Source: Nitrospira sp.
GTDB taxonomy: Bacteria; Nitrospirota; Nitrospiria; Nitrospirales; Nitrospiraceae
NCBI GenBank assembly: GCA_031315995.1
Contig: JALDRG010000016.1
Span: forward strand, 5,566-69,565
Length of the DNA stretch: 64,000 bases
Direction: 5' to 3'
Below the pieces are notes generated by a model. That model was not told the origin of the DNA. It worked only from the letters and a program-made list of their open reading frames with translations, and did no database searches. Of the stretch, positions 6,096 through 28,266 are shown one piece after another (the first letter of the stretch is position 1; every line of letters starts with the position of its first letter). The translations under genes and the position numbers were made by a program.

Positions 6096-6132
6096 TCATA
6101 TCTTTCTACCCGCGGCAACGGGATTTCCATCG

Positions 6133-7008
6133 TCATGGACGATCTCCTGTCCGAGTATCGCGTGCTCGATCAGCCATAAACTCGTGCATGTCCTTGATGA
6201 GGGCCAGAAGATCTTGGGCGCATCTTCGCAGGATCATCGTATGCTCTCGTTGCTCAGGATTGAGCGGGCTGTCGAGCAAGAGACTCACCTTGCCGACCAG
6301 TTCATTCATGGGCGTGAGAAGCTCATGGCCCATGATCGCCAAAAACTCTTCTTTCTCACGGAACACTGCCGCGGCATCGCCTAGATTCTGATCTTCAACA
6401 GTCTGTGCGATCCGTCGGACGATGTTTTCTTGAAGACGGTCGTTCGCTTCCTGCAACTCGACCGTTCGCTGGCTCACGCAGTACGCGAGGCTATTCATCT
6501 GCAGCTTTACCGAACGCGTCAGATTCCATTTTTTCGTAAGCGAATGGGCCAGCTGAACAACCTCGATGCTGTTGAATGGTTTCATAAGGATGAGCAGCTT
6601 ATCGGTGCTTCCGATTCGGCGACTCACGTCTTCCCACGGATGATCGGAATAGGCTGTGCAAATGACGATTTCAAGATCAGGATCGACATACCACAGATGT
6701 TCGATCGTTTCGAGGCCATCCCATCCCGGCGGCATACGCATGTCCACGAAAGCCATCGCGTAAGGGGAGCCCTCTCGTTGAGCACTCTGGAGCAAACCGA
6801 GCCCTTTTTGCCCTTGGTCCGTGAAGTCAACCTCATACCTCTCTTGAGACAGGACACTCGGCGGCTCTCCGAACAGGGCCACCCGAGCCTGATCGAGCGA
6901 GTCAGAATCTTTCGGCGGGGCAAGGATCTTACGAAAGTCCTCATGGATGGACTCGTTGTCGTCGATCACCAGAATCCGCCGATTGTCGATCGTCTCGTCG
7001 CGCTTCAT
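6133..7008 (-). CDS. Response regulator with coiled coil and truncated HisKA (no ATPase domain)
   Basis: REC domain is a close paralog of 4824..6095. C-terminal FLAIMGHELLTPMN, then a stop with no HATPase_c. Confidence 0.85.
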   Translation of the reverse strand: MKRDETIDNRRILVIDDNESIHEDFRKILAPPKDSDSLDQARVALFGEPPSVLSQERYEVDFTDQGQKGLGLLQSAQREGSPYAMAFVDMRMPPGWDGLETIEHLWYVDPDLEIVICTAYSDHPWEDVSRRIGSTDKLLILMKPFNSIEVVQLAHSLTKKWNLTRSVKLQMNSLAYCVSQRTVELQEANDRLQENIVRRIAQTVEDQNLGDAAAVFREKEEFLAIMGHELLTPMNELVGKVSLLLDSPLNPEQREHTMILRRCAQDLLALIKDMHEFMADRARDTRTGDRP

Positions 7009-8921
7009 GCGGCAGCCTCTGCCACGGTCAATGGAAGATCGAGTGTGAACGTGGCGCCACGTCCTTCTCCCGCGCTCTGCGCGAGTATGGCTCCGCCAAG
7101 ATTCTTGGCAGAGATGGCGGCACTATGCAGACCAAGACCGTGACCGGCATTTCTTGTAGTAAACCCCTGGGCAAACAGGCGTGAGATGTGCTCCGCCTTG
7201 ATGCCGCTCCCGGTATCGGACACCTCCAATCGCACCAGTCCTCTGCGGTCGGCGGGCAACTGGATTCTGACCGTGAGGCAATGCGAGTTCGCTGGATATT
7301 CGACCATGGCGTTCTTTGCGTTGGTGATCATATTCACCAGGATCTGAAGCACTTGGTGCCGATCCGTCACAATGGTCGGAGCCTTGGCATACTCCCGCAC
7401 GACTCGGATCCCATACTTTTCCGGCTCGGGCATCCCCATCATCAAGGCTTGCTCCATCAACTCTTCGACCACCGCTGTCTCACGAATGCTCCCCGAGTGG
7501 GCGATATCCTGCTGCGACAGAACCACGTGTTTAATATGGTCGACTTTTTTCACGAGGGAGTCGAGTTCGGCCTGGATGGTCTGGTGGCTCCCACTCAGGG
7601 ACTCGGCCACCAACCCCAGGTAAGAGGGAATCTGCTTTCCCTTCGGATCTTGCGTTAAGAACGTCTGCAAATTGTTCTGGTGCTCGTGGAACAGCGACGC
7701 GATTCGGCACACATCCCCGACCATCGGCTTCTTGAGGGTCTTTAACAGGGTATCGGTCGAAACGTTGATACTATTAAGCACATTGCCGACGTTGTGCAGC
7801 ACGCTCGATGCCACATCCGCCATCCCGGCCCGGCGGGACGCTTGCATGAGCTGCTGATGAAGTTCTTCCCGCTCCGCCTGGGCCTTTTTCCGCTCGTTAA
7901 TCTCACTGTGGAGATTCGCATTGGTGGTTTCGAGTTCCTCGTTCTTGTGCATAATCTGGGCGCGGGATGCTTCTAATTCCGTATTTGCGTCTCGGAGTTG
8001 GGAATTCGCTTGATCGAGTTCCGTGACATCATGGAAGGAAACCATGACCCCTCGGAGGGCCTCACGATCATCCAGGATCGGCGAACTCGTCACTACAAAT
8101 CGCCTGACCTCTCCATCCCCCTTACGCAATTCCAGCGGCAGGGCCGGAGCGGCTCGTTTGTGCTTACGGGCCATGATCCAAGGCAGTTCCGGTTCCACGG
8201 CGTTCGACCTGCCGGCTTCCCACGGAAACTCACAGAGATCATGCCCCATCAACGCATCTGGTCCCGCTCCGACACGGTCGCCGAACATCTTGTTCGCCAA
8301 TACGATCCGATCCTGCGGATCCACCAGCACCACGCCTACCGGGAGCACGTCGAGTGCGTTCCTCACTCGGTCAGGCACCACGGAGGAAGGATCCAGTTGC
8401 CTGAGCGTCCGTTTCATGAATGTCAGATACCCCAGATAGCCGCAGACAGCCATGAGTGCGAGAAACTGTATCCAGGGGTCCTGCACAATACCGCCGGCGA
8501 GAGACTCGGAGAGCGGACGGAACGCGACCTCCAGCGTCCCCCACCGGGACTCCCCGTTCATGATGGGTACCTGCACCTGATCAAAGGTCGATTCATCGCC
8601 CGGTCGCCTCACCCACTCTTTCTGGTGTTCTCCTGCCTGAGACAGTACCTGTCCATCGGCACGTCGCAGCGCCACGGATCGGATTTGGTCATTGCGCTCG
8701 ACCAATGCCTGCATGGTGATCTGCATGGTCTCTATCTCAGTCCGTTCCGCGAGTTTGGAGTACTGCACCGCCAGAACCTCGGCGAGAGATCGACGGTACC
8801 AGAGCGCGTCTTCGCTCTGGTCGGGCGCCACCTTCAGCAGCACATTGCCCACCATCATGAGGCTGAGCGTGAGGGACACCAACCCGAACGAAATCCATAT
8901 GATCGGCGAACCACGTTTCAC
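7005..8921 (-). CDS. Membrane PAS-domain sensor histidine kinase
   Basis: Two hydrophobic helices around an extracytoplasmic domain; PAS (GVVLVD...LAN); H-box SVLHNVGN; DTGSGI and GHGLGL boxes. 4-nt overlap with the next gene. Confidence 0.92.
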   Translation of the reverse strand: MKRGSPIIWISFGLVSLTLSLMMVGNVLLKVAPDQSEDALWYRRSLAEVLAVQYSKLAERTEIETMQITMQALVERNDQIRSVALRRADGQVLSQAGEHQKEWVRRPGDESTFDQVQVPIMNGESRWGTLEVAFRPLSESLAGGIVQDPWIQFLALMAVCGYLGYLTFMKRTLRQLDPSSVVPDRVRNALDVLPVGVVLVDPQDRIVLANKMFGDRVGAGPDALMGHDLCEFPWEAGRSNAVEPELPWIMARKHKRAAPALPLELRKGDGEVRRFVVTSSPILDDREALRGVMVSFHDVTELDQANSQLRDANTELEASRAQIMHKNEELETTNANLHSEINERKKAQAEREELHQQLMQASRRAGMADVASSVLHNVGNVLNSINVSTDTLLKTLKKPMVGDVCRIASLFHEHQNNLQTFLTQDPKGKQIPSYLGLVAESLSGSHQTIQAELDSLVKKVDHIKHVVLSQQDIAHSGSIRETAVVEELMEQALMMGMPEPEKYGIRVVREYAKAPTIVTDRHQVLQILVNMITNAKNAMVEYPANSHCLTVRIQLPADRRGLVRLEVSDTGSGIKAEHISRLFAQGFTTRNAGHGLGLHSAAISAKNLGGAILAQSAGEGRGATFTLDLPLTVAEAAA

Positions 8922-8942: not shown

Positions 8943-11900
8943 CTACCCACGGCCCGAACCAAACATCTCGTCGACATTCTTCGACGGATGCCCATCGGAC
9001 CCCTCGCCTTGGCTGGACTCCCGTTCAAGCTTCTCACGACGCCTTGCCGCACGCACCACCGGCAAAGGGTCGAAATGGTGCCACGTCGGCATGGTCGCCA
9101 ACAGGCTCGCGAGCAACCAGCCTCCGCGAAGCAGCCACGCCAGATAGCCGACGGACAACACCAAGCTGACTCCGCCCGCCGTCTTGGCCGTCAAGGTCAT
9201 CTGCTCCTGTCGCTCGTCCATCGCCCGCTGCAAAGCCTCCGTCATGGTATTCAGCTCCTTGACGAGAGCCCTCCCCAGTTTGGCCGGGATGTACGTTTCC
9301 TTCACTGCCTCAACCACCCGTTGCGCCTCCTCTCCGATACGCGCAAGGAGTTCAGGTCCAAGCGTATCGAAGAACGGGGCATCGAGTTCCTGTTTGGCGA
9401 CCAACGTTGGCTCACGATCGACTGTCTGAGCGACCAGCAAGGCTGGACGACCGGGGCTAAGTCCTTGGTCCAGGTGCACAGGCAACCCAGCCTCCGGCGT
9501 CGCAGCCGACCCTGCCGGTGGACCACTCGGGGGAGCCGGCGCTGGAGGCCCTGGCGGCGGCTCACCTCCACGCGGCGGGCCGCCAGATGGCGGAGGCCCG
9601 ACCGGCGGCGTGATCGCCCCTTCGAGCACATCCGTGACCGATACGGCCACGGTCTGAACCGCCATGCCCCCATTCCCGTCAGCCACCTGAACCTGGACGA
9701 GATAGACGTTATCGCCATTGGCATCGGCTGGTGCTTCGAAGTCCGGTGCCGCGACAAACGCCAGGTCACCGGTGGCCGCATTAATGGTGAAGCGAGCCGC
9801 ATCCGCCCCGCCCACGATGCTGTATGTCGGCACATCACCGTCCGGATCGGAAGAGGTGACGGAGCCCACGGCGGTCGTATTTTCGACGACGCTATATGCG
9901 CTGGTGGAGGTGATCGTCGGCGGGCTGTTGACCGGCGTGACGGTAATGTTGAAGGTCGTCGCGCCAAGAGATCCGCCGCCTCCGTCATTGACCGTAAAAA
10001 CGAAGCTATCACTCACCGTCTGGGAGCCGTCATGAACGTAGACGAGCTCACCAGCATTGATGTCGGCTTGCGTAAAGGCAGTGATCGCGATGCCGGGAGC
10101 GGTCGTCAATTCCAGTTGTCCGTTGGTCGGCCCGATAGTTACCGTATACGTCAGTTGGACCGGCGTGTTGTCCGGGTCGGTGACCAGTAACTCGGCGGTC
10201 GTGATCGAATCGGTTCCACCCTCCGCTACCGTCGCCCCCCCATTGGTCGCCAGCACCGGCGCGTCGTTGACGGGATCGACGGTGATCGCCACCGTGTCCA
10301 CATCGCTCGCGCTGGTCGTATCCGTGCTCGTCACCGTCAGCGTGTCGGCCCCGGTGTAGTTCACGGTGCCCTGATAGCTGAGCGTGGCCAACGTCGCGTT
10401 GAGATCGGCCTGCGTCCCCGACAAGGTGAGCGTGGCCGTGCCGTTACTGCCTGCGCTGATCGTGGCGCCGCCCTGCAAGGTCACCGTCACGGTGCCGTTC
10501 AAGACCCCCAGCTGCACGGTGCTCAAATTACCGTCCACATCGGTGACCGAGATCCCGCCCAGCGCCAGCGCCGTGTCCTCGTTCACCGTTTGTGCCCCCG
10601 GCACCGTGTTCACCGGCGCGTCGTTGACGGGATCGACGGTGATCGCCACCGTGTCCACATCGCTCGCGCTGGTCGTATCCGTGCTCGTCACCGTCAGCGT
10701 GTCGGCCCCGGTGTAGTTCACGGTGCCCTGATAGCTGAGCGTGGCCAACGTCGCGTTGAGATCGGCTTGCGTCCCCGACAAGGTGAGCGTGGCCGTGCCG
10801 TTACTGCCTGCGCTGATCGTGGCCGCCCCGCTGAGCGTCACGGTGAGCTTGCCCTGCCCCACCCCCAGCTGCACGGTGCTCAAATTACCGTCCACATCGG
10901 TGACCGAGATCCCGCCCAGCGCCAGCGCCGTGTCCTCGTTCACCGTTTGCGCCCCCGGCACCGTGTTCACCGGCGCATCGTTGACCGCTGTGACATCGAT
11001 CGTCAGCGTGTTCGGCGTCCCGTCGAGGTCGCTCCCGCCGTTCGCCGTGCCCCCGTCGTCCTGCACCTGGAAGGTAAAACTTGTGAGCGCGGCCCCGTTG
11101 GCATCTGCAGGAGGCCTATACGTGACCAAGCCGGAGGCAATGTCCCACGCCACCACAAAGTCGTTGGCCGAGATGGTGTTGCCATTCCACCTGAGCGTCC
11201 CCTGCGCGGGCACTGTCGTGAACCACACTCGATCCAAGTTGTGCCCATCCACATCGCTAAAGCCGAAGTCCGCCGGAGCGAAGGTATAGTCCGTATCCTC
11301 CGTGGCCGTGATCGTGCCATTCGCTCCTGCTGGCGCATCGTTGACCGCGGCCACGGTCAGCGTCACCGTCTGCGTCGCGCTCGGCAGGGTCCCGTCATGG
11401 GCCACTACGGTGATCGAGCGGTTGCTCGGCGTCGGCTGGTCGCTCGTGTTGTTGTAGAGAAGGCCTTGCAGCACCGTCTGGTATACCGCCGGCGTGGCCG
11501 ACCCCGTGATCGACAGCACCCCCGTCGCCGCCGTGTAATTCACCGTTAAGCTCGCCCCGGAGGCCGCCGTCGTCGCCGCGCCATTGAGCGAGAGTGACTC
11601 CACGCCATCACCATCGAGCCGCGCCGTCAGCATGACCGTTAATGCGGTCAGAGTGGCCGAGTCCACATCGGTCAGCGTCCCCACCGGTGCAATCAGCACC
11701 GGGGTCTGTTCCGTGAATGCGGTGGTCACATCCTGGCCCGCCCCCCCGGCGTTCAGATCCACCGCCGGCGCATCGTTGGTCGCCACGATAGTGAGGTTCA
11801 CGGTGCCGTCGTTACTATAGGCAACGCCGTCCTCGGCCCTGATGTAGATCGTGCGCGAGGTGGTTGTCGGACTGTCGGACGTGTTCTGATAGCGGATCGT

Positions 11901-14900
11901 GCGCAACACCTGCTCGTAGTGCGCCACCGTATCGCTCCCGCTCAATGTCAGCACTCCGGTATTGGCATCATAGGCCACCGCGATCGAGGTGCCTGTGACG
12001 TCTGCGGTGAGTTGCTCGCTCGCACCGTCGTAGAGTGTGTCGATGCTTGCGGTCAGCCCGGACAACAGCGCGTCGTCGACATCGGTCAAGGTGGCATCGG
12101 CGTCCACAATCGCGACCGCTCCCGCCCCTTCCGTGAAGGTGGCCAAAAAATTGGCACCGGTCGCTCCGGAACTGTTGTCCGCGTCCAAGTCCAGCACCGG
12201 CGCATCGTTGACGGGATCGACGGTGATCGCCACCGTGTCCACATCGCTCGCGCTGGTCGTATCCGTGCTCGTCACCGTCAGCGTGTCGGCCCCGGTGTAG
12301 TTCACGGTGCCCTGATAGCTGAGCGTGGCCAACGTCGCGTTGAGATCGGCCTGCGTCCCCGACAAGGTGAGCGTGGCCGTGCCGTTACTGCCTGCGCTGA
12401 TCGTGGCGCCGCCCTGCAAGGTCACCGTCACGGTGCCGTTCAAGACCCCCAGCTGCACGGTGCTCAAATTACCGTCCACATCGGTGACCGAGATCCCGCC
12501 CAGCGCCAGCGCCGTGTCCTCGTTCACCGTTTGTGCCCCCGGCACCGTGTTCACCGGCGCGTCGTTCACGCCGCTGACCGTCACGGTCGTGTCGTAGTTG
12601 GCGCTGGTGCCGCCGTCCCCATCGGTCAACACATAGCGCACCGTGCGCGCCCCGGTCGTCGGCGCATTCGTGTCGGTGTCTTGATAGGTGATGTTCTGGA
12701 CCAAGGCCGTCACGGCCGTGGGGGTGGCGCTGCCGTTGAACGTAATCACGAGGTTCGTGCCGCTGCTGCCGCCGGTGACGGTCCCGATGGTCACGCCTTG
12801 ATAGGTCACATTGCTGCCGCTCACCCCGATCTGCCCGGCTCCGGTGCCTTGGTTGCGGATGCTGAGCACGTCCTCCGCACTGTCGCTGCCCGCGCTAAAG
12901 CTCACGGTGAGGGTGCCCGTGTTGAAGTCGGCACTGTCCACATCGGCCACCACCGCGTTGCCGCCCTGCTCGATGACCACCGCCCCGTCACCTTCGCTAT
13001 AGGCCAGGCTGTCGCCGCTCAGGTTCGTGATCGTCGGCGCGTCGTTGACGGGATCGACGGTGATCGCCACCGTGTCCACATCGCTCGCGCTGGTCGTATC
13101 CGTGCTCGTCACCGTCAGCGTGTCGGCCCCGGTGTAGTTCACGGTGCCCTGATAGCTGAGCGTGGCCAACGTCGCGTTGAGATCGGCTTGCGTCCCCGAC
13201 AAGGTAAGCGTGGCCGTGCCGTTACTGCCCGCGCTGATCGTGGCGCCGCCCTGCAAGGTCACCGTCACGGTGCCGTTCAAGACCCCCAGCTGCACGGTGC
13301 TCAAATTACCGTCCACATCGGTGACCGAGATCCCCGCCCAGCGCCAGCGCCGTATCCTCGTTCACCGTTTGCGCCCCGGCACCGTGTTCACCGGCGCATC
13401 GTTGACCGCGGCCACGGTCAGCGTCACCGTCTGCGTCGCGCTCGGCAGGGTCCCGTCATGGGCCACTACGGTGATCGAGCGGTTCGAGGTGGTCGGCGTA
13501 TCGCTCGTGTTGTTGTAGAGAAGGCCCTGCAGCACCGTCTGGTATACCGCCGGCGTGGCCGACCCCGTGATCGACAGCACCCCCGTCGCCGCCGTGTAAT
13601 TCACCGTTAAGCTCGCCCCGGAGGCCGCCGTCGTCGCCGCGCCATTGAGCGAGAGTGACTCCACGCCATCACCATCGAGCCGCGCCGTCAGCGTGACCGT
13701 TAATGCGGTCAGAGTGGCCGAGTCCACATCGGTCAGCGTCCCCACCGGTGCAATCAGCACCGGGGTCTGTTCCGTGAATGCGGTGGTCACATCCTGGCCC
13801 GCCCCCCCGGCGTTCAAATCCACCACCGGCGCGTCGTTCACGCCGCTGACCGTCACGGTCGTGTCGTAGTTGGCGCTGGTGCCGCCGTCCCCATCGGTCA
13901 ACACATAGCGCACCGTGCGCCCCGGTCGTCGGCGCATTCGTGTCGGTGTCTTGATAGGTGATGTTCTGGACCAAGGCCGTCACGGCCGTGGTCAACGCTG
14001 GCGTTGAACGTAATCACGAGGTTCGTGCCGCTGCTGCCGCCGGTAGCGGTCGATGGTCACGCCTTGATGAGTCACATTATGCCGCTCACGCCGATCTATC
14101 CGCGGTCGCCAGTTCCGGATGCTGGTACGTCCTCACGCACTGTCGCTGCCCGCGGTAAAGCTCACGGTGAGGGTGCCCGTGTTGAAGTCGGCACTGTCCA
14201 CATCGGCCACCACCGCGTTGCCGCCCTGCTCGATGACCACCGCCCCGTCACCTTCGCTATAGGCCAGGCTGTCGCCGCTCAGGTTCGTGATCGTCGGCGC
14301 ATCGTTGACGCCGCTGACCGTCACGGTCGTGTCGTAGTTGGCGCTGGTGCCGCCGTCCCCATCGGTCAACACATAGCGCACCGTGCGCGCCCCCGTGGTC
14401 GGCGCATTCGTGTCGGTGTCTTGATAGGTGATGTTCTTGACCAGCGCCGTCACCGCCGTGGGGGTGGCGCTGCCGTTGAACGTAATCACGAGGTTCGTGC
14501 CGCTGCTGCCGCCGGTGACGGTCCCGATGGTCACGCCTTGATAGGTCACATTGCTGCCGCTCACCCCGATCTGCCCGGCTCCGGTGCCTTGGTTGCGGAT
14601 GCTGAGCACGTCCTCCGCACTGTCGCTGCCCGCGCTAAAGCTCACGGTGAGGGTGCCCGTGTTGAAGTCGGCACTGTCCACATCGGCCACCACCGCGTTG
14701 CCGCCCTGCTCGATGACCACCGCCCCGTCACCTTCACTATAGGCCAGGCTGTCGCCGCTCAGGTTCGTGATCGTCGGCGCATCATTGACCGCCGTGATAT
14801 TGACTGTCGTGTTGCCCGTCGCGCTCAGTGCCCCGCCTCCGCCCTGGGCACCCGTGTTGCCGTCGTTGAAGGTCCAGTTGATCTGCACAGAAGCCGGCGG

Positions 14901-17900
14901 CGTCGAGCTGTTGTTGGCGTAGGCAATCGCGCGCATCGCCGAATCGACCAGCGTCTGGGTGGCGCCGGCGTTGAAGGTCAGCAGCAGGGTGCCGCCACTG
15001 TTGGTGGTGACCGTGCCGATGGTCGTGCCGTTGAACACGAGCGCGCCGCCCTCGGCCAGCGTCGCCAACAAGCCGGATGCCGAGTAGACGTCCTGGGCAT
15101 TCGCGCCACCGTTGCGCGCGAGGGTCAAGGTCGCGCCGCCGAAGTTGTTCAGCGTGCTCAGTTCGGCATCGAATATCGTCACATCGTTATCGAGCACGAC
15201 CGCCGTCGCTTTTTCGGTGTACGCAATCGTTCCACCAAGGCTATCGCGCGTGTTGAAGCGGCTATCGAGCGTGCCATCGCTGTTATAACGCACGACGGCG
15301 AAGTCATAGTCACCGCCGATGGTCGAGGTCCCGGCAACCACAATCTTGCCGTCCGTCTGCACCAAGACTGACGCACCACGATCGTCACTGCTGCCGCCGA
15401 AGTTGGTGTCTACCTTGCCGGTGCCCGCACCGAAGCTCGTGTCCAGGCTGCCGTTCGCGTTATAGCGCACGACGGCGAAATTATTACCGGCCGTACTGCT
15501 TTGGCCGGCCACCAGGATCTTACCGTCGGCCTGCACGGTCACGCTCTGGGCGAGATCGCTGCTGCTGCCGATGGCGGTTGTGACTTTCCCAGTACTGTTG
15601 AAAGTCGTATCCAGACTTCCGTCGGTATTGTAGCGGACCAGCGCGAAATCGGTTGTGCCACCGGCATCGCTCCATCCGGCAAGAAGAATCCTGCCGTCCG
15701 GCTGCAGGGTGACCTGGTAGCCAGTGTCACTACTGGTCGCGCCCAGATCCGTCAGCACCTTGCCGGTACCGTTGAACGTTGTATCCAGCGTGCCGTTGCT
15801 GTTATAGCGCGCCAAGGCGAAATCAAAGCTGGTGCCGCTAAATGCGAACCCGCCGAGCACGATCCGGCCGTCTGCCTGCAGCGCAATGCTGTACGCGCCA
15901 TCAGTGCCGGCGGCGAAATCGGTCGCGACGAATCCACTCGTACCGAAGCTTGTATCGAGACTGCCATTGCTGTTGAAGCGCGCCAGCCCGAAGTCGGAGT
16001 TGTACTTCCCCGCGACCAGGATTTTGCCGTCGCTTTGCACCGCGACCCCGTTGCCTTCGTCGTTGAAACTAGTGCCCGAGGTTGCGATGCCGTCGCCACC
16101 GCCAAAGCTGCTGTCCAGGCTGCCGTCGGCGTTGTACTGCACCAAGACCATGTCCCAACTGGTTCCGGTGTAGGTACTGCCGGCCACCACAATGCGACCA
16201 TCGGCCAACAGGTAGACGCCTTTCGCAATGTCATCGCTTGCACCGATGACCGTGGTGACCTTGCCGGTGCCGCCACCGAAGCTGGTGTCGAGGCTGCCGT
16301 CGGCGTTGTAGCGCGCGACAGCGATATCCTTGGTGCCGCCGGTCTGCGTGTATCCGACGGCAACGATCTTGCCGTCGGGTTGAATCACCGACGCATTGAT
16401 CAGATCCCACGTGCTGACTGCAAACGCGGTCGTCGTTCGGCCGGTTCCCACTTCGAACGACGGCGCATCATTGGCGGCCGTCACCGTGATCGCCACCGTA
16501 TCCACATCCGTCGCGCTCGTGGCATCCGTGCTCGTCACCGTGTGATGACATCTCGACGCGATTGGGTATGGACCAGCTGGTGACATGCTCGCGTTGAGAT
16601 CGGCTTGCGTCCCCGACAAGGTGAGCGTGGCCGTGCCGTTACTGCCTGCGCTGATCGTGGCGCCGCCCTGCAAGGTCACCGTCACGGTGCCGTTCAAGAC
16701 CCCCAGCTGCACGGTGCTCAAATTACCGTCCACATCGGTGACCGAGATCCCGCCCAGCGCCAGCGCCATTGTCCTCATTGACCGTTTGCGCCCCGGCACC
16801 GTGTTCACCGGCGCATCGTTGACACCGCTGACCGTCACGGTCGTGTCGTAGTTAGCGCTGGTGCCGCCGTCCCATCGGTCAACACATAGCGTACAAATGC
16901 GCGCCCCGGTCGTCGGCGCATTGGTGTCGGTGTCTTGATAGGTGATGTTCTGGACCGACCGTCACGGCCGTCGGCGTGGCGCTGGCGTTCAGCGTAATGA
17001 CGAGGTTCGTGCCGCTGCTGCCGCCGGTGACGGTCCCGATGGTCACGCCTTGATGGTCACATTGCTGCCGCTCACGCCGATCTGCCCCGCCCCGGTGCCT
17101 TGGTTGCGGATGCTGAGGACATCCTCCGCACTGTCGCTGCCCGCGGTAAAGCTCACGGTGAGGGTGCCCGTGTTGAAGTCGGCACTGTCCACATCGGCCA
17201 CCACCGCGTTGCCGCCCTGCTCGATCACCACGGCCCCATCGCCTTCGCTATAGGCCAGGCTGTCGCCGCTCAGGTTCGTGATCGTCGGCGCGACGTTGGT
17301 TGTGTAAGACACGACAAGTTGGGCAGCCGTCGCCGGATCGGTATCATACGCCTGAGAGGCACGGTGGCCAGTCCCGGTGATGATGATCGCTAAATCATTC
17401 CCCGATGCCCATGTGCCCTGATTCACGATTTCCTGCACCACGGAAGAAATGTCCGGCGAGTTGTAATCCAAGCCAGTCGTCCAGTTGGTTGGTGTCCAGG
17501 CGGTGGAAGCGCTGGTCAACGCCCGACTGCTGATATTGCCGCTGGTAGTTGTGAACGTCGGTGCATCGCCAATCAATTGCCCTTTCAATGTCAGGCTGGT
17601 TGCATCACTGTTTGTCATTCCAGAATCCGCTGGTATCGCTCGAAAGACAAGATACGCGTTGGTGATGGTCGCACCGACAGGAATATTCATTCCCGTAAAA
17701 CGGAGCCCGATCTTCTGTACCCCGGCAGTGGGAGACTGGAAGTCGCTCACAAGCTCGATATCACTGCTATTCAGCCACATCCTGTTGGGGGTAGTGCCAG
17801 TTGGTCCTTCTTCTTCGGCGTCGTCACTGGCTGCTGCTACCCTTTGAGTCAATGTAGCGGTATTGGCTACCGAAACGGTGACGGCGAACTCGGAGGTGTT

Positions 17901-20900: not shown

Positions 20901-22205
20901 GTCGACGTTGTTGGTGATGACGTTACGGTCGTTCGGTCCGGTTCCACCGATGACGGCCAACGAACCTCGCAGATCGATGCCGTCGTCGCCGTTTCCGACA
21001 CCGCTTGAGCCTGTTCCTGTGGTGCCGATCCAATTTCCGCGGACCGTGATGCCATCGGCTCCCGTATCGACACGGATGCCGTCACCGGTAAACCGCGTCA
21101 ACACCAGACCTCGAACGATGCTGTTATCGGCCGTCGATGAGAACCTGATCCCGGTGGTCGCTACGCCATTGCCGTCCACACGAATCAGCGGATTGCTCGT
21201 AAAGCCGGTCTGGGTCCAGCCGTCGATTGTCACCTGGTCGGTGATCGTGTCTAAGTTGGATGCAAGCGTAATCGTCTGCGCCCCGGAACCGATGGCGAAT
21301 ACAATCGTGTCGGCACCGGCGGCGCCGTTCGCGCCAATGATCGCTTGGCGGAGCGAGCCGGCTCCGGCATCGTTCGTGTTGGTGACGGTGAAGGTCGCCA
21401 AGACGCCTTCCCAAGCCTCCTGCGTAGCCGTTCCGATCACGACGGAGGACTCAATCGATCCAGTCGCTACTTCCAAATTCCAGTTCGCAAATTCGGACAC
21501 ATGCCCTGTGCGGTCGGTGCTCGCCGCCACATCGGCGCCGGTGAGCTGCGCCAATGTCTGCATCGCCAACTGACCGGCCTCGCCGCGACCGAAGTTGCAA
21601 CCGTAGATCAGCAGGTCGGCATTCTGAGAGAGGCTTTGGCCGATCTGTTGAAACTGGTTCGCATACTGCTTCGTGATGGACTCTTGCGTCAGAAAACTTG
21701 TGCCGAGGTGGAGCTCCGCCTCGTTCCCTTCGGCGATCAGGTGAATCGCGTCCACGCCGGTGCGGTTCGCCAGCGCCTCGGCGATCTGCGCGATGCCGTC
21801 GCGGCGCCCATCAAGCAGGATGACTTCTGCATCGGGATTGATGCCCTGGAGGAGGACTTGAGAATCGGCAATGGTCGAGTCCACGAAGACGACTTCGCGA
21901 CGCTGCGTCGCCGGCGGATCGTAGGTGGAGATGGCGTCGAGGAGCGGATCCGGCGCAGAGGCGCTCGTATGGGGCGCATCGTGAGCTGCGTCCGCACTCA
22001 TTGCCGCGTCGGCCTGCTGTTTCGCGACCTGCTCCGGGGCGAGTTCGGCGGCGGTCGCTGCGGCCGCCGCGTCGAACATGAGGCGTGGCTCGAGCGCAAG
22101 CAAGGAGGCCTTTACCCCTCCGGACCGGCCTGTTGGGCGGCCTTTGCAGTTCGGCGGCTGCTGCTCCACGCCTGCCGGCCTCTTTGGCTGTGCTGGTCTT
22201 CCCAT
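8943..22205 (-). CDS. Giant (~4,400 aa) repetitive surface adhesin, apparently frameshifted: LEPRxxxD leader, DUF4347, two beta-helix blocks, delta-60 propeller, cadherin/Ig-like repeats, Pro linker, C-terminal hydrophobic helix
   Basis: ORF-track pieces 17043..22205, 14133..16838, 13362..13937 and 8943..13316 are collinear parts of one protein sharing VNDAP-delimited repeats. DUF4347-type motifs (VVFVDS, DAIHLI, DLLIYGCNFG, ADVAASTDRTG). Breaks coincide with indels relative to sister repeats. Confidence 0.85.
10258..17290 (-). repeat. Intragenic near-identical coding repeats (three module types)
   Basis: Module A (~360 bp, VNEDTALALGG...) near 10260, 10620, 12200, 13040, 16480. Module B (~480 bp, TITNLSGDSLAYSEG...) near 12560, 13830, 14300, 16810. 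Module C (~430 bp, VDLNAGGAGQDV...) near 11340, 13400. Boundaries approximate. Confidence 0.9.
15250..16400 (-). repeat. Seven delta-60-type repeats (beta-propeller) inside the adhesin
   Basis: Seven [QL]xDG[KR]I[VL]xxG...RYNxDGSLDxxF-like units in ORF 14133..16838. Confidence 0.85.
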
Positions 22206-22388: not shown

Positions 22389-24515
22389 TCAGAAGCCGCT
22401 CTCCCGGGCTAAGACGGCGACCGTTCGGACCCAAACCCGTTCGGCGACACTCCAGGGACGGCCCTCGACCTGGAGCGTTCCCGTGACGGCCTGGTTCCAG
22501 ACCGGTCCATCTCCCAGTAACTGGACATGCACGCGGAAGATGGACGCATCCGGCCGGACCCGACCCTGAGGATCTTTGCGAGTCGCAATGTTGCCTCCAT
22601 AGATCGATGCGTAGTAGGGAAGCGCGAACGTACTGTCATCGATCTGCCGAATTTCACGCACACGAGCCGGCAGCGCATCACGAATCAGATCCTTCGGAAC
22701 GAATCGCGCGAGTTGTCCCGGTTCGAGATAGGCCAGTTCACCTTCCGGGGCGACGGCATCGATTCCGGCCCGCTCCCCATCGACCACATAGGCTAACGCC
22801 AGCTTCTCGTTGACCCAACGACCTGGATGGAGGGATTCTGCGCAATCCGTCACTATCCCAGTGATCGGCGCCCGTAAGATCAGTTGTTCGCGCTGTTCCA
22901 GCAGCCCTCGCAGCTCTGCCCTGCGCGAGTGCAAGGATTCGACGACGACCTGGCGCTGCATGCGATCCGTTTCGCTGGAGGCCTGCCGCCCTGCGCGCAC
23001 TTCGAGGACTTCGATCTGTATCTGCGTGCGCCGCAGGTCCCGTTCAAGCTCCGGGGATTCAAGGTTCAGTAATATGTCGCCGGCCTGCACCCGTTGCCCA
23101 TTGCGAACCCTGACGGCACCGATGCGTGCGGGAATCGGAGCATAGAGGGTGGCATAGGGTGTCGCCTGGACCACTGCCTGGAGTGAGACCCGCGAAGACC
23201 ATGGGACGACCATCAGCATGATCAGCGTGAGCGATACCAGTGTCGTGACCCAGAACCGACTCCCCACGGCAAGCATGGATCGTTCCTTCCACCACCCATG
23301 GATTTCACGTCCGATCGGCAGCAGGATGAACCACAGGATTTCGACGGCAAACAGGACCACGCCCAAGGCCTTGAAGAAGAAAGAATAGACGAGTACGGCG
23401 ATCCCGAGGAACAGGAAGAACCGGTAGAGCCATGTCGCCCACGCATAGAGCAGCAGTTTTCGCCGTAACGCCGACGAGACGGGCTCCGGCGCCGCTTCAC
23501 CCGACGCAAACAGCAGTTCGCGGAGTTTCCATCGGCCGAAGGCGAAGGCGCGGTCTTGCAGGTTTGGGACTCCAAGCCAATCGGCCAGTAAGTAGTAGCC
23601 GTCGAATCGCATGAGCGGATTGAGGTTGATCGAGAGTCCGATCACCCAACTGGCCGTGGCGACCACGAAGGCCAGGGTGCGGGCTGTGCCATCGGGCAGG
23701 AAATTCCACGTAAACGTGGCCAGCATGGCCAAGGCGAGTTCCATCACCATTCCCGCGGCCCCGATCGCGAGCCGCTGACGCCGCGAGGTCAGGCGCCAGG
23801 CCTCGGTGGTATCGGAATAGAGCACCGGGAAGAGCACGAGCAATGCCACGCCCATGGTCTGCACACGACAGCCGTATTTGGTCGCCGTGTAGGCATGCCC
23901 CAGTTCATGCAACACTTTGATGCCGGCCAAGGCCGCGGCGGAGAGCACCGCGCCCTGGAACGTGAAGAAGGTGGGAAAGGTCGACACGAACGTGTCCCAT
24001 TGTCGACTGACCAAATACAACCCGCTCACCCCGAGCAATAGAACGAGCCAGGCGGCGCCCCACGTGAACAAGGGTGCGACCAGCGGGAGCGTCACGCGAA
24101 GGAACCGTTCCGGTCTGACGAGCGGGATGCGAACGAACAGGTAGTGGTGGAGCAGCCACGCCCCCCATCCCTGTCGCCTCGCTTCTGCCTGAGCGGCATA
24201 GTCCCGGCTGCTGCCGCTGGGCGTCTCTTCGGTGAGATTGTTGACGAAGAGAAACGTGATGAGGTCTTGGACGTCTTGCTCGGTTACTCGGCAGGTGGTC
24301 TCACTCTGAACGGAGTGGATGACCCGGTCGATCGATCCGCAGGCCCATCGTTCCAGCAATTGATGCGCCGTCCAACCGACCTGAAAATACCGGTTCCGAA
24401 CGGGATCGACGATCGTCCACACCGGTTGTCCATCCGGGGCAGGCGTCGATTCGAGAAATTGCAGATTGGCGCGAAGTCTCGGCAGCGGGCGCGCGGGTGA
24501 TGGCCCCATCAACAT
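22389..24515 (-). CDS. M50 (site-2) intramembrane metalloprotease fused to an HlyD-type adaptor domain
   Basis: HELGH and NLNPLMRFDG zinc motifs in a multi-TM core; C-terminal lipoyl-like hairpin, coiled coil and beta-barrel (VRVRNGQRVQAGD...LRAPITG). Confidence 0.9.
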   Translation of the reverse strand: MLMGPSPARPLPRLRANLQFLESTPAPDGQPVWTIVDPVRNRYFQVGWTAHQLLERWACGSIDRVIHSVQSETTCRVTEQDVQDLITFLFVNNLTEETPSGSSRDYAAQAEARRQGWGAWLLHHYLFVRIPLVRPERFLRVTLPLVAPLFTWGAAWLVLLLGVSGLYLVSRQWDTFVSTFPTFFTFQGAVLSAAALAGIKVLHELGHAYTATKYGCRVQTMGVALLVLFPVLYSDTTEAWRLTSRRQRLAIGAAGMVMELALAMLATFTWNFLPDGTARTLAFVVATASWVIGLSINLNPLMRFDGYYLLADWLGVPNLQDRAFAFGRWKLRELLFASGEAAPEPVSSALRRKLLLYAWATWLYRFFLFLGIAVLVYSFFFKALGVVLFAVEILWFILLPIGREIHGWWKERSMLAVGSRFWVTTLVSLTLIMLMVVPWSSRVSLQAVVQATPYATLYAPIPARIGAVRVRNGQRVQAGDILLNLESPELERDLRRTQIQIEVLEVRAGRQASSETDRMQRQVVVESLHSRRAELRGLLEQREQLILRAPITGIVTDCAESLHPGRWVNEKLALAYVVDGERAGIDAVAPEGELAYLEPGQLARFVPKDLIRDALPARVREIRQIDDSTFALPYYASIYGGNIATRKDPQGRVRPDASIFRVHVQLLGDGPVWNQAVTGTLQVEGRPWSVAERVWVRTVAVLARESGF

Positions 24516-24518
24516 GGC

Positions 24519-25919
24519 TCACCACCCCACGAATTGGCGAAGGGCGGACAGCGGACGCCGGAACAGGAGAAATGCCAACGGGCCTTGCTGCCCATAAATC
24601 TTGGCGGTGCCTTGCCACCCGATTCGGACCGCTCGATTCGTGCCCGTCAGCCCGGCGGTCACATGATAGGCCAGCTGATCGCCGGGAAGCACTTCGGCAT
24701 GGTACCCGGCATGCGTCACCTTGGCTTTGTACGTCTCGAGCGGCTGCGCGTCGAAAAACACCGCCACCTCCGCATCTTCCTGCAGCAACATCGCATCATT
24801 GACGGCCAAATCGATGCGCAATTCCAGCTGCGCAGGATCAGCGATCTCCATGATCCGTTCTCCCACGACCACCGGTTTCCCGACCCAATCGGCCTTATCG
24901 GTATAAATGAGCAAGCCGGACCGCAACGCCTTCACCTCCACTCGATCCAGGAGTTCCTTGGCATAGTCTCGCTCGGTCTCTTTGAGACGGGCTTCCGCCT
25001 CCAGAAGGGGAACTTCGGCCTTGCGCTGTGGATCGAGGAATCCCGATTGGACGGCTTGGTGGTGCTCCGCCTTGGCGACCGCGAGCTGCTTGCCTGCGAC
25101 GTGATACTGATTGCGCACATTCGTGTCTTCATACCGCAGGATCGTCTGACCCTCGACCACCATCGTGTTCGGCGGGACGAGGACCTCGGCCAACACGCCG
25201 TCCATCGGTGCCGTCACCACAGCCGGCTCTTTGGCGACGACCTTGACCGGGGCCAGCGTGGAGAGATGCACCGGGATACAGAGCGCCAGCAGCATGCCGA
25301 CGACGACGAGCCAGGTGACCCGACGAGGCAGCTTCCAGCTTCCGAACGAGCCGGGCTTCGCGAGGGCCTTGTACGCATGGGCATAGGTCTCGACCAGCCG
25401 TTGTAGAATCTGGATCTCATTGTCCTGCCAGGGCTGATCACGGTCGAGCCACAGTCCCCCGAGCAGGGACCGGTCGGGATGACGCAGAGGACACCAGAGG
25501 GCATGCGAGCCGGCAAATTCTTTCCATCCATCCCGGAGAGACGGAGAGCAGTCTTCGGCGGAGATCCGCATCGGCGTCTCAACGTCAGGACCTGTCCTGC
25601 TATTCCGCACCAGCTGCTCCAGCCATCGCATCATCGGGGCATCGCGCTCCACTTGGGACAGGCTCGAGGCCGCATGGACCTGGTAAGGCGATGCGGGATG
25701 CCTGCCTGCGCCGAACAGAAAGGCCTGACGGTACGCGATGAGGCGCCGAGTTTCGTTGACGATGAAAAATTCAAGAGCGTGGGCGGTGGGTTGCGCCCGT
25801 GCCTGACCTTCCAGTTGAAGCAGGATCGTCAAGGCCGGCGTTCCTGACGGCGCATCGTTCTGGCTTCCCGACGTAGCGCCTGGAGCTTCCCTGCAAGGCA
25901 TGTGGAGCACGTTCTGCAT
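24519..25919 (-). CDS. HlyD-family periplasmic adaptor with N-terminal GAF-like domain
   Basis: N-terminal GAF-like segment (FFIVNETRRLIAYRQA...LWCPL...GGLWLDR), one TM, then adaptor (APMDGVLAEVLVPPN, GERIMEIADP). Confidence 0.85.
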   Translation of the reverse strand: MQNVLHMPCREAPGATSGSQNDAPSGTPALTILLQLEGQARAQPTAHALEFFIVNETRRLIAYRQAFLFGAGRHPASPYQVHAASSLSQVERDAPMMRWLEQLVRNSRTGPDVETPMRISAEDCSPSLRDGWKEFAGSHALWCPLRHPDRSLLGGLWLDRDQPWQDNEIQILQRLVETYAHAYKALAKPGSFGSWKLPRRVTWLVVVGMLLALCIPVHLSTLAPVKVVAKEPAVVTAPMDGVLAEVLVPPNTMVVEGQTILRYEDTNVRNQYHVAGKQLAVAKAEHHQAVQSGFLDPQRKAEVPLLEAEARLKETERDYAKELLDRVEVKALRSGLLIYTDKADWVGKPVVVGERIMEIADPAQLELRIDLAVNDAMLLQEDAEVAVFFDAQPLETYKAKVTHAGYHAEVLPGDQLAYHVTAGLTGTNRAVRIGWQGTAKIYGQQGPLAFLLFRRPLSALRQFVGW

Positions 25920-25964
25920 AGGACGACCGTAGTGCGGCTGAGTGACGAATCGCTGCGTCCAAGG

Positions 25965-26759
25965 TTAGGGGTGGGGAACGGGAAAACTTGCCGTACCACT
26001 CATCCCTGCCAACACCTCGGAAGGGAGCTTCTCAAACCGCCCCGTGACCTTGATGGTTTGACTGGCCGGATCGACATTGGCTCCCAGTTCCTTGACCACT
26101 GCGGGATAGGGGCGTCCGGTTTCATCCACAGAGAAGACGAACCGCCCGCCTCTGGCCAACCAGCTCAGTGAATTCGACGGCAAGACAAGTTCGATCTCCA
26201 AACTGGTATCATCCAACAGGCTCAGCAACTTGTCGTTCGGAAAGACATTTTCATATTCGTGGACCAAGACCTCCACGATCCGTCCCGAGAACGGCGCCGT
26301 GATTTCACACCCCCGCACGTTGATTTCCATGATCCGGATGGCCGCCAACGCTTTTTTCGCCTCGGCCGCCGAAACTTCGACTTCCAATTGGCCGACGGCA
26401 TGCAAAGTTGCCAGTTGAAGATTGTTCCGATGGGTCTTTTCTTTCGCCTCGTATTCCGCCATCGCCCCTGCGAGCTCCGCTCGGTACTTGTCGCAATCGA
26501 TTTGGACCAGTGAACTGCCCTTCTTGAACCGCGCCCCTTCTCGAAACGGCAATCGCTTGACGCGACCTTGAATCTGACTAAATAACACCGCCTGCGTGGC
26601 GGCCTTGACGATGCCGCGCATCGCCTGGAGCTCACTTCGCACAGCCGGCGACGACGGTTCGGGCTTGGCCTCCCCACGGGCGTGGCCGGTCACACACAGG
26701 AGGCTTCCCGCCAGAACAAGACAGACGTTACTGAGCCACCGGACGAATCGTAGGGACAT
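25965..26759 (-). CDS. Periplasmic adaptor subunit (membrane-fusion protein) with signal peptide
   Basis: SQIQGRV...FKKG, ITAPFSGRI, VDPASQT motifs. Start re-called at MSLRF (26759) from the RBS. Confidence 0.88.
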   Translation of the reverse strand: MSLRFVRWLSNVCLVLAGSLLCVTGHARGEAKPEPSSPAVRSELQAMRGIVKAATQAVLFSQIQGRVKRLPFREGARFKKGSSLVQIDCDKYRAELAGAMAEYEAKEKTHRNNLQLATLHAVGQLEVEVSAAEAKKALAAIRIMEINVRGCEITAPFSGRIVEVLVHEYENVFPNDKLLSLLDDTSLEIELVLPSNSLSWLARGGRFVFSVDETGRPYPAVVKELGANVDPASQTIKVTGRFEKLPSEVLAGMSGTASFPVPHP

Positions 26760-28266
26760 CCTGTTCCTTCTTACGTACTGGGACCATCGCAACCATTTCC
26801 GACCGTTCCCAGTGCTCTCGGATCGCCTGAGCCAACTCCGCGACGTTCTGACTCGGTGTCATCGACGGCACGGCGTCCTCTCCGATGGCCGCCATGAGGT
26901 TGCCTTGCGCGGCTTCAAAAGCGGAACGCGCCACGTCGAGGCGCACCTCGGCGAGCACCTCATTCACTTTTTCTCGAATCAGATTGAGATCGCTCGTGCT
27001 GCGGGTCAGCCAGCCCCGCTGCGTCTGATCGGCGATTTGAACTTGGGTGACTTGATACCGTGCCGCATTGTCCAGTTCTTGGCGCGAGTAGGCGAGTTGA
27101 GTGGCTCCGACATGCACCTCCGTCAAGACCGTCAAGGAGGTGGCCAAGCTTTGCGTCTTCAACACGTCGTCCTGGGTCTGGATGACTTTCGATTTGGCGC
27201 GTTGGCTGAAGACGTTGAGCAGGTTCCAGCTGACCTGCGAAGCGTAGCCGAGCCAGTTCTGGTACAGAAAGAAACTGTTACTGCTGTAGTTCCCGCCGAA
27301 TTGGGCGCGCAAATTGGGAAACATTTGCAGGAGGGCGACTTTCGCTTCCTTGGCATTGACTCGTTTCTGATAATCGATGGTGCGGAGTTCCGGTCGATTC
27401 ATCAGGGCTTGCTCTTCTAAGCGGTCGAGGTCCAGATTGGCGACCGGGACGGCACGATCGACGGCCGGCATCTTCAGCTGGTAGAAGGCGTCGGGCTGGA
27501 GATTCATCAGTGACGCCAGCTGCACCTTCGCGATATTCAATTCCCGGTAGAGCCGCTGGACTTCACGCTGAATATTGAGCAGATCGCGCTGATAGTTGAG
27601 CGGCGCGAGCGGCGACTGAAGTTTCCTATCGTAAATGGTCCTGGTGTTCGCCAACGCTTTGGTGACCTGGTCGTCCAACGACGCCACCTTGCCGATCAAT
27701 CGATCGGCGCTCGCTGCCCGCCAAAATGCGTTCCGAACGTCCTGTATCAGCCGGATGGCCTGCCGCCGCTTTTCTTCCTGCGCGATCAAGACATTGTCTG
27801 CCGCTTGCTGCGCCCGCACATAGGAGAGGCCGAAATCCAATACGTCCCAACTCAAATACAGATTTCCGGTAAAGATGTTCCGATCGGCGGAGGTGACCGG
27901 TTCCAGGATCTGTCGACCGGTGAGGAGCGACACGGCGGTACCGCCGCTGAAGTTGTTGCGACCATCATACCCGGCATTCGCCGCAAGCTGAGGCAGGAGC
28001 GAATAATGCGCGAGGTCCAGTTGCTGGTGCGCAAACATGGTCTGCATGACCTTCACTCGACTGTCCAAGTTGTATTTCAACGCGCGGGCCATGGCTTCGT
28101 AAAGATCAATAGGCCCGGTCACCGGATCCTGGTCCGCGTGTAGGATCCGAATATCGTCCGCGACCCGCAAACGGATCTCTTCGTCCGTCAGCGGATGCGG
28201 CACGATCATGCAGGACGTGAGAAACAAGAGGGCAGAGCCCAACCCTATGGCGTAGAGACGGTTCAT
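26728..28266 (-). CDS. TolC-family outer-membrane channel (lipoprotein)
   Basis: Lipobox LTSC; OEP repeat motifs (AMARALKYNLD, LSWDVLDFG, ALMNRPEL). Confidence 0.9.
   Translation of the reverse strand: MNRLYAIGLGSALLFLTSCMIVPHPLTDEEIRLRVADDIRILHADQDPVTGPIDLYEAMARALKYNLDSRVKVMQTMFAHQQLDLAHYSLLPQLAANAGYDGRNNFSGGTAVSLLTGRQILEPVTSADRNIFTGNLYLSWDVLDFGLSYVRAQQAADNVLIAQEEKRRQAIRLIQDVRNAFWRAASADRLIGKVASLDDQVTKALANTRTIYDRKLQSPLAPLNYQRDLLNIQREVQRLYRELNIAKVQLASLMNLQPDAFYQLKMPAVDRAVPVANLDLDRLEEQALMNRPELRTIDYQKRVNAKEAKVALLQMFPNLRAQFGGNYSSNSFFLYQNWLGYASQVSWNLLNVFSQRAKSKVIQTQDDVLKTQSLATSLTVLTEVHVGATQLAYSRQELDNAARYQVTQVQIADQTQRGWLTRSTSDLNLIREKVNEVLAEVRLDVARSAFEAAQGNLMAAIGEDAVPSMTPSQNVAELAQAIREHWERSEMVAMVPVRKKEQDVPTIRPVAQ

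Follow-up and report, generated by a model that had tools for sequence, protein, structure and literature searches.

A site-2 protease fused to an RRE-like domain and a periplasmic adaptor, encoded beside giant LEPR-XLL/DUF4347 proteins in Nitrospira and other bacteria

The 64,000-nucleotide stretch of a Nitrospira sp. contig (JALDRG010000016.1) analysed here, referred to below as the window, encodes a 708-residue protein, P0001 (22389-24515, minus strand, stop codon at 22389-22391). P0001 fuses a domain resembling the recognition elements (RREs) of ribosomally synthesised and post-translationally modified peptide (RiPP) pathways, an M50 site-2 protease and a HlyD-type adaptor. Its gene is grouped with those for a TolC-family channel and two further adaptors, and because this set adjoins giant surface proteins tagged with a conserved LEPR-type leader, the module probably marks an undescribed way to process and export such giants. 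We propose a conserved module that spans the envelope, has P0001 as its inner-membrane core and is dedicated to processing, passing or anchoring the adjacent LEPR-XLL/DUF4347 giant, a reading whose chances we judge to be about even. A preliminary description of the window had reported an open reading frame (ORF) at this position; the gene is confirmed, though on the minus strand; stops occur throughout the plus strand at 22389-24515.

The gene for P0001 is the last in a tight four-gene operon (22389-28266, all on the minus strand). The operon begins with a TolC-like lipoprotein, a 512-residue outer-membrane factor of the OEP family with the lipobox LTSC (26728-28266). It is followed by a small HlyD-type adaptor of 275 residues with an N-terminal signal or anchor sequence (25965-26792) and by P0002, a 466-residue protein comprising a GAF-like cytoplasmic domain, one transmembrane (TM) helix at approximately residues 201-219 and a HlyD adaptor (24519-25919). 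The intergenic gaps are 3 nt (from the stop of the GAF-adaptor gene to the start of the fusion gene) and 45 nt, with one overlap, and the gene for the giant DUF4347 protein begins 183 nt downstream of the fusion gene. Pfam scans of the window found no ATP-binding cassette (ABC), resistance-nodulation-division (RND) or major facilitator superfamily (MFS) transporter gene in the operon or elsewhere in the 64 kb, and the operon contains no short precursor ORF or RiPP tailoring gene.

The pairing of fusion and giant is conserved. In the source genome the fusion gene, the DUF4347 gene and the LEPR-8K match above the cut-off each occur exactly once, and all are adjacent. Nitrospira sp. ND1 and another Nitrospira genome have the same four genes with the DUF4347 giant directly after them. 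Among 18 sampled Nitrospiraceae genomes, the fusion and DUF4347 occur in the same eight and neither occurs in the other ten; in all eight carriers a DUF4347 copy lies 1-3 kb downstream of the fusion on the same strand. Of 121 sampled Pseudomonas species, 64 carry the fusion cassette: both genes are present in 60, only the fusion in four, only DUF4347 in two and neither in 55. By our reading of the two tables concerned, in 59 of the 60 species with both, the two genes lie on the same strand of a single contig no more than 25 kb apart. The genome's only DUF4347 gene is the one adjoining the operon in Pseudomonas congelans, Rhizobium, Methylobacterium, a Pelagibacteraceae genome and Scalindua, and DUF4347 was absent from all 14 control genomes. 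The pattern recurs in unrelated lineages and the link is not due to chance; the neighbouring adhesin, which the preliminary description named as the likely substrate, is a conserved partner across phyla.

A survey of 81 loci (80 fetched and the window itself) revealed that practically all have the core of small adaptor, GAF-adaptor and fusion, while the outer-membrane factor is mostly encoded upstream of the core and, in Pseudomonas, downstream of the giant gene. A tagged giant is present in 40 of the 81 loci. In a further 19, a same-strand ORF of at least 900 residues is cut by the locus or contig edge, and for seven of these edge-cut loci (L020, L023, L038, L061, L068, L081 and L085) a genome search placed DUF4347 exactly at the expected N-terminus. 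Ten loci were too short to judge for a giant gene. Plasmid p2 of Azospirillum brasilense Sp7 (238256-257247, L086) carries genes for a DUF4347 giant, TolC, two adaptors and the fusion. Homologues were found on 60 plasmid records, 18 of them from Escherichia and eight from Citrobacter.

What the partners share appears to be the leader. In all 42 neighbouring DUF4347 ORFs, a set picked without the use of any motif, the sequence LE.R..[FLM]D precedes the domain. The leader consensus is [AS]-L-E-P-R-[IML]-[ML]-F-D-G-A-A-x-A-T, found 10-80 residues from the start, and an acidic low-complexity linker comes after it. Positions outside the search pattern are also kept, with alanine at +9 in 34 of 36 sequences and threonine at +13 in 32 of 36. 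Because the Halomonas partner (L045) has the leader, as LEARVLLDAAS, and no DUF4347, the feature uniting the partners appears to be the leader and not DUF4347.

In the window, the giant is represented by P0003 (17043-22205, minus strand), a 1,720-residue protein with the leader, DUF4347 and right-handed beta-helix repeats. The LEPR-XLL leader motif of P0003 (residues 35-56, ...LLALEPRLMFDAAAAATAAE...; 22038-22103, minus strand) matches the LEPR-8K/LEPR-XLL model NF012209 at 17.2 bits against a cut-off of 17, and at 19.5 bits in the genome search, where it is the only match above the cut-off in the source genome. The DUF4347 domain (residues 105-269, E 4.5e-52; 21399-21893, minus strand) is the sole copy in the genome. 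Two further ORFs follow on the same strand (8943-16838), one of 901 residues with delta-60/tandem-95 repeats and one of 1,457 residues that is cadherin-like and ends in a hydrophobic helix. The breaks between the three adhesin ORFs (16839-17042 and 13317-14132) lie inside direct repeats of 95-100% identity with single-base indels. Contigs of four other metagenome runs have several small indels exactly at these breaks; those aligned to the first junction are fragmented, repeat-derived pieces that differ from the window by small indels. The three ORFs are probably one gene of at least 4,400 codons, split by assembly errors in the repeats or recently pseudogenised. Pfam scans for RTX repeats found none in the window partner, and no C-terminal secretion signal was detected. 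The longest DUF4347 partner encountered, in a Rhizobium genome, has 8,424 residues.

The preliminary description had offered either end of the adhesin as the likely substrate. The N-terminal option stands, the LEPR leader being common to the partners. The C-terminal helix does not: the C-terminus of the window's third ORF (8943-9300) and the giants of three other Nitrospira loci (L001, L002 and L006) end in a conserved hydrophobic helix of the pattern SLxLSVG[YF][LV][AL]W[LA][LV]R[GK]G, followed by a basic or proline-rich tail, but this helix is absent from the Pseudomonas, Colwellia, SAR11 and Methylobacterium partners. We therefore rejected it as a conserved site-2 protease target, since it is confined to Nitrospira.

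P0001 itself belongs to a large family of full-length fusions. A HMMER search over 1.84 billion cluster representatives (clusters at 50% identity) returned 12,643 matches at E<1e-3, with 3,611 clusters left at the stricter E<1e-30. The best 150 matches are all full-length fusions of approximately 700 residues with 36-55% identity; the motifs of P0001 are therefore not chance matches. Peptidase_M50 (PF02163) scores 33.5 bits against a cut-off of 27.2, in an alignment covering only profile positions 3-100 of 221. In the adaptor half, HlyD_3 scores 40.5 bits (cut-off 22.2) and HlyD_D23 30.6 bits (cut-off 30), and Biotin_lipoyl_2 is also matched. The type I secretion adaptor model TIGR01843 (type_I_hlyD) reaches 25.3 bits, below its cut-off of 208.65. 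The NCBIfam model for the daptide 'intramembrane metalloprotease' (NF041824) aligns with residues 27-395 at E 1.2e-46, and its 159.6 bits against an equivalog cut-off of 300 make P0001 a homologue and not a member of that family; the YydH/LiaK model NF058609 gives 30.5 bits against a cut-off of 225. No PDZ or CBS domain is present in P0001.

An AlphaFold2 model of the whole protein, built from 57 homologues, has a mean predicted local distance difference test (pLDDT) score of 91 and a predicted template modelling (pTM) score of 0.78. It comprises a beta3-alpha3 domain at residues 19-91, a helical membrane core and an adaptor beginning at residue 439, with a membrane-reentrant beta-hairpin between the two zinc motifs. 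The membrane core has an M50 fold (residues ~136-438; 23202-24110, minus strand). The periplasmic membrane-fusion domain (residues 439-708; 22392-23201, minus strand) contains lipoyl, alpha-hairpin and beta-barrel subdomains of the HlyD/MacA/MexA kind, and Foldseek finds that this region resembles MacA, EmrA, MexA and AcrA at E of approximately 1e-12. The soluble N-terminal domain of about 120 residues and the complete adaptor module described earlier are thus both recovered, by the model and by the Foldseek adaptor matches. When the whole model served as the Foldseek query, matches to the adaptor half prevailed, and the search was uninformative on the protease and the N-terminal domain.

Both zinc motifs reported in the preliminary description are intact. 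HELGH (residues 203-207; 23895-23909, minus strand) ends the hydrophobic segment 184-206, and NPLMRFDG (residues 299-306; 23598-23621, minus strand), which contains the third zinc ligand D305, comes after TM4. In an alignment of 57 homologues with 23-55% identity to P0001, two of which are paralogues only 23-24% identical to it, six residues do not vary (H203, E204, H207, N297, F304 and D305), and conservation is 90% or more at P300, R303 and G306. Loss of the zinc ligands in most homologues would, by the standard of the preliminary description, have refuted its reading, and they are kept in all 57. The invariance of the HExxH and NPxxxxDG residues down to 23% identity argues for retained catalysis in the fusion. 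The topology of P0001 was predicted from hydropathy and the positive-inside rule, which give seven helices with a cytoplasmic N-terminus and a periplasmic adaptor; the basic loops 207-248, 299-352 and 403-419 are predicted to be cytoplasmic. Because the zinc motifs are predicted at the cytoplasmic ends of TM2 and TM4, the active site is predicted to face the cytoplasm from the inner-membrane end of any conduit. The preliminary description had instead placed the protease at the mouth of TolC, which this predicted topology does not support. That placement and the C-terminal helix aside, the earlier reading largely withstood the in-silico checks.

The N-terminal domain (residues ~15-95; 24231-24473, minus strand) is an RRE/PqqD-like winged helix of three strands and then three helices. 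A separate model of residues 1-135, with a pLDDT of 87, has this same arrangement. Its best three Foldseek matches in the PDB are structures of TbiB1, a lasso-peptide RiPP recognition element, with leader peptides (E 0.014-0.021, probability 1.0, TM-score on the target 0.67-0.69), and matches four and five are the RRE-bearing sactisynthase CteB. The five best matches, at E 0.014-0.11, are therefore all leader-binding RRE domains, as had been anticipated in the suggestion of a PqqD/RRE-like domain that might recognise the substrate. Fold comparison was the only route by which the domain was recognised: neither Pfam, at E up to 10, nor a profile search of the PDB gave a PqqD or other match. R15 and D37 of this domain are invariant in the homologues and may, speculatively, pair with the invariant glutamate and arginine of the LEPR leader. 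The RRE-bearing site-2 protease of daptide pathways has been given the role of an 'RRE-dependent intramembrane peptidase' (bioRxiv 10.1101/2023.03.08.531785). From the RRE-like fold together with the homology to RRE-site-2 proteases, the first ~400 residues of P0001 therefore represent a known architectural type, and the appended adaptor is what distinguishes P0001 from known proteins of that type.

In the mechanism that we propose, the cytoplasmic RRE-like domain would bind the N-terminal LEPRxMFDGAA leader of the giant, and the M50 site, on the cytoplasmic side of the membrane, would remove or clip that leader. The fused adaptor and the two other adaptors would couple the complex to the outer-membrane channel, thereby tying leader processing to the passage or anchoring of the giant. 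The GAF domain of P0002 may provide ligand control. Site-2 protease substrates need helix-breaking residues, as for RseP and SpoIVFB, and the proline and glycine of the leader are of that kind.

A related module has been described before. Two Nitrospira genomes, including that of N. defluvii, carry a paralogous fusion with 34% identity to residues 1-430 of P0001 and 23-24% over the full-length alignment. The order in these sister cassettes (L004:4797-18053 and L005:3698-12991) is GAF-adaptor, fusion, SecA_DEAD-like ATPase and adaptor, with an OEP in one of the two, and the ATPase is truncated, at 663-696 residues. The cassettes adjoin CARDB/cadherin-like proteins with the N-termini LEGRILLAAD and LEARVLLAGD, which makes LE[GA]R[IV]LLA[AG]D a second version of the LEPR-type leader. 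This 'secondary SecA_DEAD' locus was described in silico in 2015 by Kamneva, Poudel and Ward (PLoS One, PMC4452313), as comprising GAF-HlyD, Peptidase_M50-HlyD, SecA_DEAD ATPase, HlyD and sometimes OEP. In their proposal the SecA-like protein serves as the ATPase and the M50 protein may supply the transmembrane pore; the substrate was left unnamed (PMC4452313). The paper notes neither the RRE-like domain nor the LEPR/DUF4347 partners, and by full-text search 'DUF4347' does not occur in it (PMC4452313). The module family and its SecA-bearing relatives are therefore already on record, as an uncharacterised module, and the window clade is a motor-less variant of it.

The literature searched makes no mention of the motor-less variant, of the RRE-like reader or of the dedicated LEPR/DUF4347 partner. 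Searches found no work tying either variant of the module to LEPR-XLL/DUF4347 proteins; those for M50 with HlyD and TolC, and for 'peptidase M50' with 'membrane fusion protein', gave only incidental string matches, and those for DUF4347, LEPR-XLL and 'putative peptide zinc metalloprotease'/K16922 gave nothing on secretion or function. A 2026 Chlorochromatium preprint was considered as prior art and set aside, as it concerns classical type I secretion components and not the present module.

Several points weigh against the reading of P0001 as the core of a module dedicated to the giant. We infer binding and cleavage of the leader, as well as the route of export and its source of energy. No energy source is encoded in the module: no SecA-like ATPase occurs in the operon or within 10 kb of it across the 81 loci, and in 86 loci (the 81 together with L001-L005) no HlyB-type ABC gene lies within 10 kb or is conserved beside the module. 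The source genome encodes five ABC_membrane exporters elsewhere, which together with the housekeeping SecA could carry out transport. The weak point is the energy supply and the inner-membrane passage of a protein exceeding 1,700 residues. The fold match of the N-terminal domain to RREs is moderate (E 0.014) and lacks sequence-profile support. Twelve of the 81 loci have no giant gene within the flank, and four Pseudomonas genomes (G177, G197, G211 and G243) have the fusion without DUF4347, their fusions forming a subclade 47-49% identical to the P. congelans protein. Finally, the co-occurrence counts carry less statistical weight than they suggest, since related genomes are not independent observations, and their Fisher values are descriptive only.

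The most serious rival is that the module only processes, tethers or releases the giant while an unlinked type I ABC exporter or Sec translocates it, and it stays serious because the operon encodes nothing that would obviously translocate a protein of more than 1,700 residues. We consider it unlikely, if clearly worth keeping in view. It would account for the lack of a motor in or near the operon, and the five ABC_membrane exporters and the housekeeping SecA elsewhere in the genome (the only SecA there, a 905-residue frame of housekeeping type on another contig) offer candidates for transport. It is also favoured by the RTX-type calcium-binding repeats of some Azospirillum DUF4347 proteins (PMC13723633), since such repeats typify ABC-dependent type I substrates, and by the C-terminal segment of the Pseudomonas partners, which is unlike the Nitrospira one. 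However, three dedicated adaptors and a dedicated outer-membrane factor are hard to explain for mere processing, no ABC gene is conserved beside the module in the 86 loci (ABC-ATPase-like ORFs occur in only ten, and are small, at 235-369 residues, unrelated and 1-8 kb away), and the window partner has no Pfam RTX match. Further, the operon of the sister clade has its own SecA-like ATPase (PMC4452313), and this recruitment implies that the module itself moves something. It is improbable that the M50 domain is not the giant's protease but an inner-membrane pore or scaffold of a type-I-like system, or a gate that cleaves an adaptor anchor. The 2015 proposal does have the M50 protein supplying a transmembrane pore (PMC4452313), and a fusion with seven TM helices would oligomerise with the adaptors. 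Against this stand the invariant HExxH and NPxxxxDG residues of the 57 homologues, even at 23% identity, and the leader-binding type of domain that precedes the protease. Moreover, a monomeric site-2 protease core, as in the RseP and SpoIVFB structures, is not known to have a protein-conducting channel.

Two readings that dispense with the giant altogether fare much worse. The closest sequence families of P0001 are the daptide and YydH/LiaK RiPP proteases, and relatives bear the JGI label 'putative peptide zinc metalloprotease', both of which would suit a leader peptidase-exporter for a small RiPP or bacteriocin with a giant neighbour by coincidence. We rejected this small-peptide reading as highly improbable: gaps of 3 nt and 45 nt and an overlap leave no room for a precursor gene, the operon has no RiPP-modifying or tailoring enzymes, the scores lie far under the cut-offs (159.6 against 300 and 30.5 against 225), and the association with giant LEPR proteins is too consistent for coincidence. 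There is similarly very little likelihood that P0001 is a regulated-intramembrane-proteolysis signalling device, cleaving an anti-sigma factor or a sensor and unrelated to transport. M50 proteases classically act in such cascades and histidine kinases are encoded downstream at 4824-8921, but P0001 has no PDZ or CBS domain, its protease is fused to an adaptor and encoded with an outer-membrane factor at nearly every locus, and regulators are not conserved neighbours across phyla.

Beyond the proposal that P0001 is the core of a dedicated module, we tentatively suggest, at somewhat below even chances, that the channel, the three adaptors and the RRE-site-2 protease form a distinct secretion pathway. 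In such a pathway the LEPR leader would select giants, which would be clipped at the inner membrane and sent to the surface without an ABC, RND or MFS transporter, a SecA-like ATPase being added in the sister clade. There is a substantial chance that this is a distinct secretion route rather than a variant of TolC-dependent, leader-guided export.

Other genes occur near the module in particular clades. In the window, a PAS histidine kinase and two REC-HisKA proteins without an output domain are encoded directly behind the adhesin ORFs (4824-8921, minus strand), echoing the sensor genes beside the Pseudomonas clusters. Several Pseudomonas loci (L064:3620-14796, L058, L059, L062, L066, L074 and L077) have genes for a GNAT acetyltransferase and a sulfotransferase between the fusion and the giant, to which some add a PMT_2-type glycosyltransferase; a REC-PAS-GGDEF-EAL protein and a PAS histidine kinase are encoded upstream. 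These neighbours hint at modification of the giant protein and at control by cyclic di-GMP (c-di-GMP). The four Pseudomonas genomes with a fusion and no DUF4347 may, like Halomonas L045 and Pseudomonas sp. C11 (L037), pair it with LEPR-tagged giants lacking that domain. In alphaproteobacterial metagenome-assembled genomes (L020:12313-21019, L023 and L024), five conserved genes lie downstream of the fusion, among them those for a 634-residue AAA-family ATPase and several proteins without a Pfam match, and this set may have an accessory or energising role there. As for expression, a search over all kinds of sequencing run returned only DNA metagenome runs; no search was aimed at RNA.

LEPR-XLL/DUF4347 giants are among the largest bacterial proteins, and the literature searched holds no export route for them. 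The cassette is common. It was found in about half of the sampled Pseudomonas, in Azospirillum and Rhizobium, which associate with plants, and in the nitrifier Nitrospira, the marine SAR11 group and the anammox bacterium Scalindua. In public annotation, the RefSeq name of the fusion, including that on A. brasilense Sp7 p2, is only 'HlyD family efflux transporter periplasmic adaptor subunit', which hides both the protease and the leader-reading domain, and JGI names relatives 'putative peptide zinc metalloprotease'. If the module does export its partner, it would be a new branch of TolC-dependent secretion, leader-guided, protease-gated and without a known motor. It would also provide an experimental handle on biofilm and attachment biology in tractable species; A. 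brasilense Sp7 is a genetically tractable model rhizobacterium with a complete cluster. If the pathway is distinct, a new type of secretion system would be present in about half of the sampled Pseudomonas species, in nitrifiers, rhizobia and SAR11, and in anammox bacteria. If the module only processes or tethers the giant, a site-2 protease and RiPP-type leader recognition would even so have been put to a new use, on a megaprotein.

Among the closest known systems, the module of Kamneva and colleagues shares the three adaptor families, M50-HlyD and GAF-adaptor included, and the outer-membrane factor; its SecA-like ATPase has no counterpart in the operons of the window clade, or within 10 kb of them, in the 81 loci. 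The RRE-fused site-2 proteases of RiPP pathways (daptide MpaP/DapP and YydH/LiaK) likewise have an N-terminal RRE-type domain followed by an M50 core, and presumably the same logic of reading a leader and cutting it at the membrane. P0001 falls below the cut-offs of those families, has a whole periplasmic adaptor appended and is paired with a partner of at least 1,720 residues instead of a short precursor with modifying enzymes. Compared with RseP and SpoIVFB (PF02163), P0001 has the same HExxH and NPxxxxDG motifs in transmembrane helices with, in the model, a reentrant beta-hairpin between them, while RRE-like and adaptor domains take the place of PDZ and CBS domains. The adaptor architecture is that of the HlyD superfamily, but no cognate ABC, RND or MFS transporter is encoded in the operon.

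Two secretion systems offer functional parallels. In exporters of the peptidase-containing ABC transporter (PCAT) type, such as CvaAB-TolC for colicin V, a leader peptidase resides in the inner-membrane component of a TolC-dependent tripartite exporter. The analogy is functional only: in both, a peptidase in the inner-membrane part acts, or here would act, on an N-terminal leader, but PCAT exporters combine a C39 cysteine peptidase with an ABC motor and handle small substrates, whereas the present module has an M50 protease, no ABC component, three adaptors and a giant partner. The LapA-LapBCE system with LapG and LapD similarly places a giant repetitive surface protein beside a TolC-type channel and an adaptor, and combines an N-terminal element under proteolysis, as we propose for the LEPR leader, with a ligand-sensing regulator, the c-di-GMP receptor LapD there and the GAF domain here. 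The present module has no ABC transporter, and its partner no detected RTX repeats or C-terminal signal; and where the Lap system uses a periplasmic cysteine protease, the module has an inner-membrane metalloprotease predicted to face the cytoplasm.

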